From Candidatus Aenigmatarchaeota archaeon (GTDB taxonomy: Archaea; Aenigmatarchaeota; Aenigmatarchaeia; CG10238-14; SpSt-28), in assembly GCA_021161995.1 (NCBI GenBank), contig JAGGZO010000073.1, positions 1 through 24,000 on the forward strand: a DNA stretch of 24,000 nt. Reading direction: 5' to 3'. This document shows, piece after piece, positions 6,320-10,102 of the stretch (position 1 is the first letter of the stretch; every line of letters starts with the position of its first letter). The position numbers and the translations under genes are program-made. Below the pieces are notes generated by a model. That model made no database searches and had not been told where the DNA came from. It saw nothing but the letters and a program-made list of their open reading frames with translations.

Positions 6320-7153
6320 TCATTCTCTGTAATACAAAAACAGTTTAACATCTCTTATGTCATAAAATGCTTCTCCATTAACGTAAAACTCTATAGTATT
6401 GTCACCAGCTTTTATTACAGATTTATCTATTTCTATTTCATTTGTTCTACTGAATGGTCTCTTATTGTAAATAATTTTATCGTTTATTTCAATTACCAGA
6501 TTGGATGTTTCCAAAGAAGGAAATTTCTTGAACGATAATTCTGCTAGTTCAGACTTTTCTAGAATGTTTTTATCTACATAGAACGAAAATTCCTCCTCTT
6601 CAGTTTCTGTTGTAGTTGTTATTGTTTTTGCATAGTCTAGCAGGTAAACAGCTCTCATCCAGAACTTCCATCCAGGATTTGTTGCTTTTATCTTCACATA
6701 GTTGCTTTCTTGTTTTAAGTAACTAAGAGGTATTTTTATGGTGTATATACCTGGTTCTGCTCTTTTTGACCAAAGTTTTACATCATTCACGTATATCTCC
6801 AAATTGCCTGCGTTGTTAGTATCTCTAACTAAAAATTCTAACATTACTTCTTTGGTTTGATTTGTTTTATCTGGTAGAATTAAACTTATGCTTTTCTCTG
6901 AAAAATAACCTTTCTCTACACTAACAGAGTTCACCTCATCAATTGTCTTAGTTTCGTTTGATAAAGATATGTTTACCTGAGCTGCTATGAAAACAGAAAA
7001 TTTGGATAATTTTTCAGAAATATCAGTTTTGTTAGTAATCTTTTCTGGAGTTGTGACTTCTTGTTGGGTAAAGTAAATGGCTAAAACCATTATGAATATC
7101 ACAGATCCTAATAGTATGAATGCAAATTCATCCAGTGTTTTTTGACCTTTCAT
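6320..7153 (-). CDS. Hypothetical secreted or membrane-anchored protein with an internally duplicated beta-rich domain
   Basis: 277 aa. It has an N-terminal signal-anchor FAFILLGSVIFIMVLAIYF. Two related segments are present: NLEIYVNDVKLWSKR...YVKIKA and NLVIEINDKIIYNKR...NTIEFYV. Several N-x-S/T sequons occur. I recognise no family. Confidence 0.6.
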   Translation of the reverse strand: MKGQKTLDEFAFILLGSVIFIMVLAIYFTQQEVTTPEKITNKTDISEKLSKFSVFIAAQVNISLSNETKTIDEVNSVSVEKGYFSEKSISLILPDKTNQTKEVMLEFLVRDTNNAGNLEIYVNDVKLWSKRAEPGIYTIKIPLSYLKQESNYVKIKATNPGWKFWMRAVYLLDYAKTITTTTETEEEEFSFYVDKNILEKSELAELSFKKFPSLETSNLVIEINDKIIYNKRPFSRTNEIEIDKSVIKAGDNTIEFYVNGEAFYDIRDVKLFLYYRE

Positions 7154-7190
7154 ATCAATAATTAAGTTTTAGTGTTCACAAAATTTATTT

Positions 7191-7877
7191 GTGTCTTGTA
7201 GAACAGATAAAGAATCAAAGGAAGTGGATTGCTACATAAAGAACTGGTTATCAGTAATTTTTATCTATAAAATCCTTCAAAAAGGCGATATAATAACAGC
7301 TAAAACCATTAGGAACGTCTTTGTGTGGAAAAATGGTAAAAAAGTTAAGGTTGGTAGGAAAGAGGGTATTGTGGACTTAAAAATAGAAAAGATTACTTTA
7401 GATTCTATGAAAAAAGCTATACGTGTTAAAGGTGTTATTGTAGACGGACCGGAAGATTTTGAGAGGGGATATCATAGCATAGATGTCAAGATTGGAGATA
7501 GGATAAAAATTAAGAAGAAGGAGTGGAGTAACAGAATAGAGAAACTTTCAAGATTGTTTTCTGATAGAAATATTACAACTAACTATTCTGAATATTTGAG
7601 CAAGTTTTTTGAGCATTTCAATAAGGATGATGGCTTAGTTGCTTATGGAGGCGATGTAAAAGAAGTTGTTGCCTATGGCATAGTAAAATTTCTGATTGTA
7701 CCGGATGACGTACTTTTTGATGAAAGCATCATAGAATTAGTTAGCGAAGCCCTATCAAAAGGCAGTAAAATCGTGCTTGTTGATGTTAATAGTGAAGAAG
7801 GTAGAAAATTCAAGAAAAATTTTGGTTTAGCTGCTCTCCTTAGATTTAGCTACAAGACTAGCTATATATCCAGCTAG
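7191..7877 (+). CDS. Pelota/Dom34-like mRNA surveillance protein, shortened; the central domain is apparently absent
   Basis: 228 aa with a GTG start, which is the first in-frame start after stop 7170-7172. The N-domain-like part reads QKGDIITAKTIR...IRVKGVIVDGPEDFERGYHSIDVKIGDRIKIKKKEW. The eRF1-domain-3-like C-terminus reads GLVAYGGDVKEVVAYGIVKFLIV...GSKIVLVDVNSEEGRKFKKNFGLAALLRF. Confidence 0.55.
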   Translation: MSCRTDKESKEVDCYIKNWLSVIFIYKILQKGDIITAKTIRNVFVWKNGKKVKVGRKEGIVDLKIEKITLDSMKKAIRVKGVIVDGPEDFERGYHSIDVKIGDRIKIKKKEWSNRIEKLSRLFSDRNITTNYSEYLSKFFEHFNKDDGLVAYGGDVKEVVAYGIVKFLIVPDDVLFDESIIELVSEALSKGSKIVLVDVNSEEGRKFKKNFGLAALLRFSYKTSYISS

Positions 7878-9290: not shown

Positions 9291-9350
9291 ACTCTTTATT
9301 TTTTGTTTATTTATTCGACTATTTCTTATCTGATTAGTATAAGAAAGTAG

Positions 9351-10062
9351 TGGGGCGGGTGGGATTTGAACCCACGACCTACCGGTCTTCAGCTTCGGCT
9401 GGGAAGAGACCTAATATACTCTTTGCTATTTTATATTTATAACTATTTGAAAATCCTATAGTATTCATCCATTTCTTGAGATTTTCTCTTCCATATAAAG
9501 CCAGTTTAAAACTGGCTGTATTAGATTTTTTACTAAAGCTTTTCCTTACTTTACCAGTTCTAAATCCTAGTTTTATTAAAATGTCTCTTATTTGATCGAG
9601 AAGCTTTCTACTAGAACTTGTAAATTCTAGTGTTGGATAATTTTTTACTCCTTTTTTGTCTGAAGTGAATATAGATCCATCTGTATCCATTATGCCTCTT
9701 ATTACTTGTTTAGCTATCTCAATATCCTCGAGTGCAACCTTTGGTAATGCGACTTTCAAATGTTTGCCAAAACCTATTGGTATTCCAGTCGATGAAATCA
9801 TTTGAAAGAAATGTTTTGATGTTATTCTTAATCTTATTGCATTTTCCCTCTTTCTAACTTTGACAAATACACCAAACTGTTTTTCTATGTTTTCCTTTAG
9901 ATATTTAAAATATTCTTCATCTTTTTCTTGGTGACCTGTTAGTTCCACTCTATAATGAGAATTTTTCGAGTATAGATTACCGTCTCCTATTATAGCCCCA
10001 ACAAGTTCCCAGAAGAATGGTCTCTTCCCATCGGCCGCTCTCCCGGACTGAGCCACCGCCCC
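9351..10062 (-). tRNA. tRNA-Phe(GAA) gene with a 638-nt intron between positions 30 and 31
   Basis: The 5' exon is 10062..10032: GGGGCGG TG GCTC AGTCCGGGA GAGC G GCCG. The 3' exon is 9393..9351: G CTGAAGA CCGGT AGGTC GTGGG TTCAAAT CCCAC CCGCCCC A. Joined, they give a perfect 74-nt cloverleaf with a 7-bp acceptor stem, all stems paired and anticodon loop CUGAAGA. Confidence 0.85.
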
Positions 10063-10083
10063 ACTAATTGTTATTTTTAGCAT
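9379..10083 (-). CDS. Double-motif LAGLIDADG homing endonuclease, intron-encoded; the true start codon is unresolved
   Basis: The ORF is 234 aa. Motif 1 is WELVGAIIGDGNL and motif 2, about 100 aa later, is IRGIMDTDGSIF, the spacing of monomeric I-DmoI-like enzymes. The ORF as drawn starts 21 nt upstream of the tRNA, reads through the 5' exon, and ends at a TAG inside the 3' exon. The biologically used start is unclear. Confidence 0.75.
   Translation of the reverse strand: MLKITISGAVAQSGRAADGKRPFFWELVGAIIGDGNLYSKNSHYRVELTGHQEKDEEYFKYLKENIEKQFGVFVKVRKRENAIRLRITSKHFFQMISSTGIPIGFGKHLKVALPKVALEDIEIAKQVIRGIMDTDGSIFTSDKKGVKNYPTLEFTSSSRKLLDQIRDILIKLGFRTGKVRKSFSKKSNTASFKLALYGRENLKKWMNTIGFSNSYKYKIAKSILGLFPAEAEDR
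9394..10031 (-). mobile_element. Archaeal bulge-helix-bulge (BHB) intron carrying a LAGLIDADG homing endonuclease gene
   Basis: Hand-folded BHB. A 4-bp helix pairs CGGC (10037..10034) with GCCG (9399..9396). It is flanked by 3-nt bulges CG|A (10033..10031) and AA|G (9395..9393). It is closed by a perfect 12-bp helix, TGGGAAGAGACC (10030..10019) with GGTCTCTTCCCA (9411..9400). Cleavage after the second bulge nucleotide gives exactly the exon ends needed for the tRNA-Phe cloverleaf. Confidence 0.8.
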
Positions 10084-10102
10084 TTAATCATTTATAAAGT
10101 TT

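Follow-up and report, generated by a model that had tools for sequence, protein, structure and literature searches.

Many introns in archaeal ribosomal RNA (rRNA) genes encode LAGLIDADG homing endonucleases (PMC4496867), and such enzymes have been described for rRNA introns of the bulge-helix-bulge (BHB) type (PMC4496867, PMC6125680). In a review of tRNA introns the term "homing endonuclease" does not occur (PMC4090602), and in the literature searched no report was found either of an archaeal tRNA intron with a homing endonuclease or of the translation of a pre-tRNA. Here a BHB intron with an endonuclease reading frame is described in the gene for phenylalanine tRNA (tRNA-Phe) of an Aenigmatarchaeota archaeon (GenBank assembly GCA_021161995.1, contig JAGGZO010000073.1); the whole stretch of 24,000 nucleotides (nt) that was analysed is referred to as the window. 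The encoded protein shows signs of purifying selection, and the intron supplies neither a start nor a stop codon for it. The question of where translation of such a tRNA-intron endonuclease starts appears to be new.

Among the described systems, the archaeal rRNA BHB introns that carry I-DmoI, I-PorI and I-Tsp061I are among the most similar to this locus. They share with it the splicing motif, the use of a host endonuclease and ligase, a monomeric two-motif enzyme, an open reading frame (ORF) that nearly fills the intron and a sporadic distribution, and they differ in the host gene, which is an rRNA gene there and a tRNA gene in the window. To our knowledge, the ORFs of rRNA BHB introns have their own start and stop codons, whereas the window intron holds neither. 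In mitochondrial group I introns, as in the window, the endonuclease frame is not confined to the intron but includes 5' exon sequence, and its translation can begin at a start codon located outside the intron; such an exon-fused ORF therefore has to be translated from unspliced RNA. The mitochondrial exon, however, is protein-coding, the fusion protein is processed and splicing is carried out by a ribozyme, whereas the exon in the window is the body of a tRNA, splicing is of the protein-catalysed BHB type and transcription is coupled to translation, the organism being an archaeon. The window frame is open from position 10083 through the 5' exon, as expected of an exon-fused intron ORF, but the upstream exon is not translated as a host protein. 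Since this exon consists of tRNA nucleotides 1-30, the locus falls outside the mitochondrial exon-fused class and resembles its logic only. The ORF of I-PpoI in the rDNA of Physarum reportedly extends into the upstream rRNA exon, with an alternative AUG in the exon. As far as we know, a few eukaryotic rDNA introns are the only cases in which the expression of a protein gene within a stable-RNA gene has been elucidated.

The tRNA-Phe(GAA) gene lies on the minus strand and is interrupted at position 30/31 by the 638-nt intron (Table 1). An earlier note on this DNA had claimed that the endonuclease frame has no start codon inside the intron, spans both splice junctions and stops inside the 3' exon, and all of this was borne out. 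The frame is open from an ATG upstream of the tRNA, and the 5' exon is read as ...GAVAQSGRAAD, in which the codon for the last residue is made up of G10032, A10031 and T10030. The in-frame intron codons ahead of the LAGLIDADG helix are (G)AT GGG AAG AGA CCA TTC TTC TGG, and from the 5' splice site to motif 1 of the linear intron the enzyme frame contains no ATG, GTG or TTG; an error of frame tracking, which the note had named as a possible refutation, was not found. The 3' splice site is crossed on a codon boundary, between GAA and GCT, the anticodon GAA is read as a Glu codon, and the frame ends at the TAG in the variable loop. The ATG formed by the first three intron nucleotides is out of frame and its ORF ends after 13 codons, as described earlier; the D-arm GGAG sits 8 nt 5' of this ATG, in the Shine-Dalgarno register of the host genome. 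Circularisation of the intron does not help either: the frame leading into the enzyme is closed by stops at 9445..9431 (placed roughly correctly by the note at about 9440-9455), and from the last stop to the junction it holds no ATG, GTG or TTG.

The endonuclease ORF is not a chance feature, because its frame has no stop in 212 intron codons while the other two intron frames have at least 30 stops each. The 234-aa ORF is matched by Pfam PF14528 (LAGLIDADG_3) at 1.5e-13, with motif 1 reading ...GAIIGDGNL and motif 2 ...GIMDTDGSI; both Asp residues fall in columns that are invariant across 25 homologues, and every invariant residue of the family is kept. In the AlphaFold2 model (pLDDT, the predicted local distance difference test, 90 and pTM, the predicted template modelling score, 0.86 for residues 21-226) the alpha-beta-beta-alpha-beta-beta-alpha fold of LAGLIDADG enzymes is present twice. 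The intron contributes five codons ahead of the first LAGLIDADG helix, which begins at residue 23; disorder is predicted for residues 1-20 (upstream codons and exon) and 231-234 (3' exon). Foldseek matched the model to I-Tsp061I (2.5e-10), I-DmoI (about 1e-8) and PI-PfuI, all with E-values of 1e-10 to 1e-8. When PDB sequences were searched with the family profile, a V-ATPase intein endonuclease (1.4e-8) and I-DmoI (3e-4) were recovered, and phmmer with the single window protein gave no match in the PDB. The ORF is therefore predicted, from its motifs and modelled fold, to encode a two-motif monomeric homing endonuclease of the I-DmoI-like kind. Because the intron offers no start and the first helix begins at residue 23, a functional enzyme must start in the exon or further upstream.

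A second sequence in the 90% cluster of the window protein (P0097), 94% identical and encoded on a separate 11.9-kb metagenome contig from the Joint Genome Institute, has the same length of 234 aa and the same N-terminus (MLKITISGAVAQSGRAADGKR...). An assembly error is thus ruled out for the start-less architecture, and the start-less state is older than the split between the two copies, since both have this N-terminus. The two proteins differ at 15 residues. Of the 66 columns in which 24 homologues show a conservation of 70% or higher, none is affected (hypergeometric p=0.003), and the differences fall in weakly conserved columns, with a mean conservation of 0.33 versus 0.57 (permutation p=2e-5). 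As the differences avoid conserved columns, the protein has been under purifying selection in the start-less architecture, a test made on protein sequences only. The earlier note had named close copies that are disrupted and free of constraint as a possible refutation; P0097 is intact, and its differences point the other way. A scan of metagenomes returned copies of the type represented by locus L001 and more distant ones, and no copy of the window's own variant.

The tRNA gene itself appears sound. Its joined exons form a clean tRNA-Phe(GAA) of 75-76 nt with a canonical cloverleaf (ARAGORN), 82-93% identical to the intronless tRNA-Phe of 17 genomes of the same family. ARAGORN with default settings misses the gene, and with introns allowed it reports 10062..9350 with a 638-nt intron. 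The splice junctions consist of a central helix CGGC/GCCG with 3-nt bulges CG^A and AA^G, adjoining a perfect 12-bp intron helix; the predicted junctions thus have the two 3-nt bulges, the 4-bp helix and the cut after the second bulge nucleotide that define a BHB motif. In the unconstrained minimum free energy (MFE) fold of the whole 713-nt precursor the acceptor, D and T arms are formed, as are the 12-bp helix and the 5' bulge; of the four central pairs three are present, and the remaining one competes with the D-stem pair G10-C25. The same BHB layout is found in the relatives L001, L027 and L066, and homologous introns of 630-662 nt occupy the same tRNA site in L001/L111-L113, L027 and L066. 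The host is a DPANN-type archaeon with an assembly of 0.71 Mb in 89 contigs (33.6% GC), and this is the only tRNA-Phe gene in the genome (ARAGORN, introns allowed), so splicing of its intron has to work. The genome encodes a splicing endonuclease, as one 397-aa ORF matched twice by PF01974 (1.8e-23), and an RtcB ligase (PF01139, 2.7e-180). The splicing endonuclease (C35:13409-13888) is a multi-unit form similar in size to the broad-specificity three-unit enzyme of ARMAN archaea (PMC3239211), and by analogy such a form would suit non-canonical intron positions. ARAGORN also calls an intron-bearing "tRNA-SeC(tca)" (C23:189-303) and a "tRNA-Stop(tta)" (C52:563-675) in this genome, which are probably mis-typed intron-containing tRNAs and not suppressors.

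Table 1 Features of the tRNA-Phe locus and its endonuclease frame in the window
Feature	Position	Strand	Remark or basis
tRNA-Phe 5' exon (tRNA positions 1-30)	10032..10062	-	5' end G10062; acceptor stem and D arm in precursor MFE fold
BHB intron, 638 nt (3x212+2), 31.5% GC	9394..10031	-	Filled by the endonuclease frame
tRNA-Phe 3' exon (positions 31-73)	9351..9393	-	Anticodon GAA 9390..9388, discriminator A 9351
BHB 5' side: helix strand C10037-C10034, bulge C10033 G10032^A10031, intron helix strand 10030..10019	10019..10037	-	MFE fold
BHB 3' side: intron helix strand 9411..9400, central strand G9399-G9396, bulge A9395 A9394^G9393	9393..9411	-	MFE fold
Maximal ORF, 234 aa: 7 upstream codons, 5' exon, intron, 4 codons and stop in 3' exon	9379..10083	-	ORF list
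In-frame ATG, 21 nt 5' of the tRNA and 19 nt past the topoisomerase VI subunit A stop	10081..10083	-	Sequence
In-frame GTG from tRNA nucleotides G7-U8-G9, favoured candidate start	10054..10056	-	Needs G at position 9
ATG at intron nt 1-3, out of frame; 13-codon ORF (MGRDHSSGNLLGL, then stop)	10029..10031	-	In-frame start in L001-type relatives
TAG stop of the endonuclease frame, in the tRNA variable loop	9379..9381	-	Sequence
TATA-like box TTTATAAA, starts at -36, last base 29 nt from tRNA 5' end	10091..10098	-	Predicts transcription start at about 10068

Upstream of the tRNA, the TATA-like box starts at a distance that is usual for the host genome, in which the box starts of tRNA genes cluster between -31 and -38 and are most frequent at -33 and -36. 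The transcript of the tRNA is accordingly expected to start at about 10068, 3' of the ATG at 10083, in agreement with the earlier note, and only transcripts that read through from the overlapping topoisomerase VI operon upstream could make use of this ATG. Such read-through is likely, because the spacer from the topoisomerase VI A stop to the tRNA-Phe 5' end is only 40 nt long (10103-10062, minus strand), contains no oligo-T run longer than 3 and has the tRNA promoter box inside it. In the same genome, a motif TTTGATGAAA ends exactly at the mature tRNA 5' end in at least 8 of 36 tRNA genes (contigs C5, C15, C18, C23, C24, C41, C42), and several further tRNA 5' flanks end in TTGA or TTGAA; the motif could be an initiator signal, a processing signal or a box-C-like UGAUGA.

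Five intron-borne lineages were compared for their start and stop codons. In the L001 type (L001/L112, L111 and L113; 50-52% identical) the ATG of intron nt 1-3 is in frame, with the D-arm GGAG 8 nt upstream, and the anticodon loop, in the 3' exon, supplies the stop, a TGA. P0002/P0098 (49% identical) has an ATG directly before the Trp codon, where the window has TTC, and apparently stops within the intron, as far as can be told from the protein C-terminus only. L027 (Undinarchaeota) starts with a GTG at intron nt 6-8 and stops at a TGA one base inside the intron, and L066 (Desulfurococcales) starts with an ATG near intron nt 64 and again stops at the anticodon-loop TGA of the 3' exon. The window copy and P0097 are the lineage with no start in the intron and a stop in the variable loop. 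In a protein tree from a quick search, a supported clade of intron-borne copies unites the window copy and P0097 with L001 and P0002 (SH-aLRT, the Shimodaira-Hasegawa-like approximate likelihood ratio test, 97); within it the start codon lies at nt 1, at about nt 15 or, in the window, nowhere in the intron. By this comparison the window copy is an outlier in a clade with a moving start codon and does not stand for the family. Among three metagenome variants of the L001 type there are 16 changes, 9 synonymous and 7 non-synonymous, of which 11 are at third positions, and no indels; this pattern indicates that the L001-type copy is under selection from the ATG at nt 1-3. The gene call of P0098 opens with the translated tRNA 5' exon (...GTVAQPGRATD...), which shows that it is intron-borne and in the same phase as the window copy. 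The exon-derived N-terminus recurs in P0097, and the L001 type and P0002 have ATG starts within the intron. The stop codon comes from the 3' exon in three of the five lineages (window, L001 type, L066), so that termination in these is possible only on RNA that still holds the 3' exon, or on a circle.

About 100 homologues of 200-220 aa were found in DPANN archaea, Bathyarchaeia and other archaea, and most of the family is free-standing. Among 80 loci surveyed in species-representative genomes, the endonuclease gene is found directly ahead of a tRNA-Phe of the same strand in 32 and is convergent with one in 17; 3 genes are inside a tRNA-Phe intron and 4 are otherwise adjacent to one, and the remaining 24 loci show no tRNA-Phe signature within 380 nt. 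The tRNA-Phe beside a free-standing gene is often interrupted at position 30/31 as well, by a short intron that lacks an ORF. Collaborative homing, or the invasion of ORF-less introns by endonucleases, has been described for T4 mobE/I-TevIII and cyanophage F-CphI/psbA (PMC3984707, PMC2790892, PMC6083498). The arrangement of the present family, in which free-standing genes beside tRNA-Phe predominate and the neighbouring 30/31 intron often lacks an ORF, is like it (PMC3984707); the phage systems, however, involve group I introns, whereas here the introns are protein-spliced BHB introns of archaea and mobility is putative.

Among 18 genomes of the same family, 17 carry a continuous tRNA-Phe and lack the intron, and these genomes contain no close homologue of the window enzyme. 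Neither the family nor the order (118 genomes) yielded a closer intron-borne copy, the best matches there being free-standing enzymes of 39-43% identity, and the enzymes nearest to that of the window come from other lineages. The presence or absence of an intron at a conserved site thus differs among close relatives, as expected of a mobile intron. Because the intron is absent from 17 same-family genomes with a tRNA-Phe, the invasion is recent and the enzyme was recently active; judged by this distribution, the window element is a recently acquired mobile tRNA intron. The intron site has probably been invaded at least twice, since L027 and L066 fall among free-standing genes on the tree.

Several observations on the free-standing members may be added. 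In two Bathyarchaeia loci (L040:629-645, L047:2336-2352) the tRNA-Phe 5' end is repeated as a 17-nt copy some 165 nt ahead of the endonuclease gene, so that a repeat of the tRNA start flanks the cassette. In six Woesearchaeota/Pacearchaeota-type loci (L023, L026, L062, L114, L115, L121) a small AbrB/SpoVT-like ORF (...AINIPSEIVKLLKIKEGDFLRVEIEKI) precedes the endonuclease, with stop and start nearly abutting. The contigs of L008 and L026, with an archaeal endonuclease and tRNA-Phe, are binned as bacteria of the candidate phyla radiation (Saccharibacteria, Dojkabacteria) and are probably mis-binned archaeal sequences.

One difference in the exons is at position 9 of the tRNA. All 17 same-family tRNA-Phe genes read GTAGCTCA, with A9, whereas the window reads GTGGCTCA, with G9; as a result of this G, an in-frame GTA becomes GTG. 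The other exon difference, G27, completes the BHB central helix. When 371 genomes of the same class were searched with a continuous tRNA-Phe pattern, 136 of the 137 matches had A9 and one had TG; this lone match (G320) was rejected as a true G9 because it is an intron junction in a multi-intron gene. Every tRNA-Phe adjoining a member of the endonuclease family also has A9, and G9 is therefore unique to the window against about 180 other continuous tRNA-Phe genes examined. Of the 93 single changes that the 5' exon could undergo, about 6 would give an in-frame start, and a chance coincidence of G9 with the GTG is possible but not likely. The multi-intron gene (L152, G320:C100, about 7150-7330) has inserts near position 8/9 and in the T arm, and no endonuclease homologue was found within 2 kb of it.

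With a selected protein and an intron without a start or stop codon, either exon nucleotides of the tRNA must take part in translation or a non-standard route is used. We favour the former and give about even chances to a reading in which the enzyme is made by translating the unspliced, probably nascent, tRNA-Phe precursor. Archaeal ribosomes can load on nascent RNA. While the polymerase transcribes the 638-nt intron, the 5' exon would have no partner for its acceptor stem and the splicing motif could not form, so that translation might proceed before either structure exists. The start would lie in the 5' exon, the GUG created by the rare A9-to-G change being the most likely codon; alternatively, transcripts that read through from the topoisomerase VI operon would be translated from the AUG 21 nt ahead of the tRNA. 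What remains of the exon would then be read as a disordered N-terminal tail, followed by all of the intron and four 3'-exon codons, with termination at the UAG in the variable loop. Afterwards the RNA would fold, and the splicing endonuclease and RtcB ligase would remove the intron to give tRNA-Phe. The specific version, in which the GUG of tRNA nucleotides 7-9 is the start codon and the nascent precursor is translated to the UAG, is offered more tentatively; in it the selfish endonuclease would have left the provision of its start and stop codons to the tRNA gene of the host, and the maturation of the tRNA and the synthesis of the endonuclease would compete for the same molecule.

Translation of the unspliced precursor is favoured by the rarity of G9, the selection on the protein, the fold that begins at residue 23 and the stops in the 3' exon. 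Translation signals borne by the exon would also fit the clade, since the L001-type ATG has the D-arm GGAG 8 nt upstream. A number of points weigh against it. The exon GTG has no recognisable Shine-Dalgarno sequence, whereas about a quarter of the long ORFs of the host genome use (G)AGGTG at a spacing of 5-7 nt (the 16S rRNA 3' end was not found in the host assembly, and the anti-Shine-Dalgarno was deduced from upstream motif statistics only). At about 12 nt from the predicted 5' end of the transcript, the GTG would be neither leaderless nor led by a Shine-Dalgarno sequence, and it would face competition from the out-of-frame ATG at intron nt 1-3, whose context is better. An exon start is seen in none of the relatives: the L001 exon has an in-frame stop at T8-A9-G10 and the L027 exon has no start codon. 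In three of the five lineages (window, P0098 and L027) the ORF and the 5' exon share one phase, an agreement that is not significant. The change to G9 could be drift, or a target-site or co-conversion marker, and the selection is dated only to the time since the split of the window copy and P0097.

The earlier note had left three options side by side, namely a start in the exon, a non-canonical initiator and an enzyme that is no longer expressed. The comparison strengthened the exon start and weakened the last option, which we still regard as a possibility of some weight, if an unlikely one. It would mean that the start codon, either the ATG at nt 1-3 or the ATG before the Trp codon, was recently lost and that the ORF is a young relic; the intron would persist through the splicing enzymes of the host, and G9 would be unrelated. 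Such a loss is plausible in that the sister lineages do start within the intron, by the selected ATG of the L001 type and the Met before Trp of P0002, and no Shine-Dalgarno sequence stands before the exon GTG. Loss of the endonuclease after fixation is also the generally expected life cycle of a homing element. A relic, however, would hardly keep 212 codons free of stops and indels at 31.5% GC together with every invariant residue of the family, both catalytic Asp motifs included, and the way in which the differences between the two start-less variants avoid conserved positions and the recent invasion by a recently active enzyme both speak against a relic.

A non-standard start inside the intron is improbable in our judgement. 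The ribosome could begin at the AUG of nt 1-3 and shift by -1 into the enzyme frame within 13 codons, or it could begin at the AAG of codon 3 or, in a circularised intron, at an AUU upstream of the junction. The AUG is retained with its GGAG and is the true start in the closest member of the clade, and archaeal BHB introns are generally known to circularise, in which case the circle would supply a stop 13 codons past the junction. There is, however, no slippery heptamer and no nearby downstream structure for a shift, AAG ranks with the weakest near-cognate starts, the circle offers no ATG, GTG or TTG in frame past its last stop, and no archaeal precedent was found in the literature searched. 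Translation of the circular intron was accordingly rejected as the main model for want of a canonical start, and -1 frameshifting from the AUG was set aside for the missing slippery site. Termination and reinitiation after the 13-codon ORF was discarded too, as the next in-frame start would delete motif 1, and so were alternative splice sites, which cannot alter the reading frame of the DNA. It is very improbable that the start is missing merely through an assembly or sequencing error, such as an indel of 1 nt somewhere from the ATG at nt 1-3 to the Trp codon. If the 17 nt that follow this ATG held one more base, it would indeed be in frame and the N-terminus would have a typical length, but the independent contig of P0097 encodes the same 234-aa frame with the same exon-derived N-terminus, and the helix partners of the first 13 nt pair perfectly.

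The window locus thus presents a sharp case, in which a protein under selection is encoded by an intron without a start or stop codon, on evidence that is circumstantial and drawn from sequence. For annotation it means that gene callers miss the tRNA-Phe here, or call a 234-aa "hypothetical protein" across the tRNA. If translation of the unspliced precursor is the true explanation, an unspliced pre-tRNA can serve as mRNA in archaea, and a selfish element can reshape an otherwise invariant nucleotide of a tRNA, at position 9. Long tRNA introns would then give a kinetic window in which translation may run ahead of tRNA folding.

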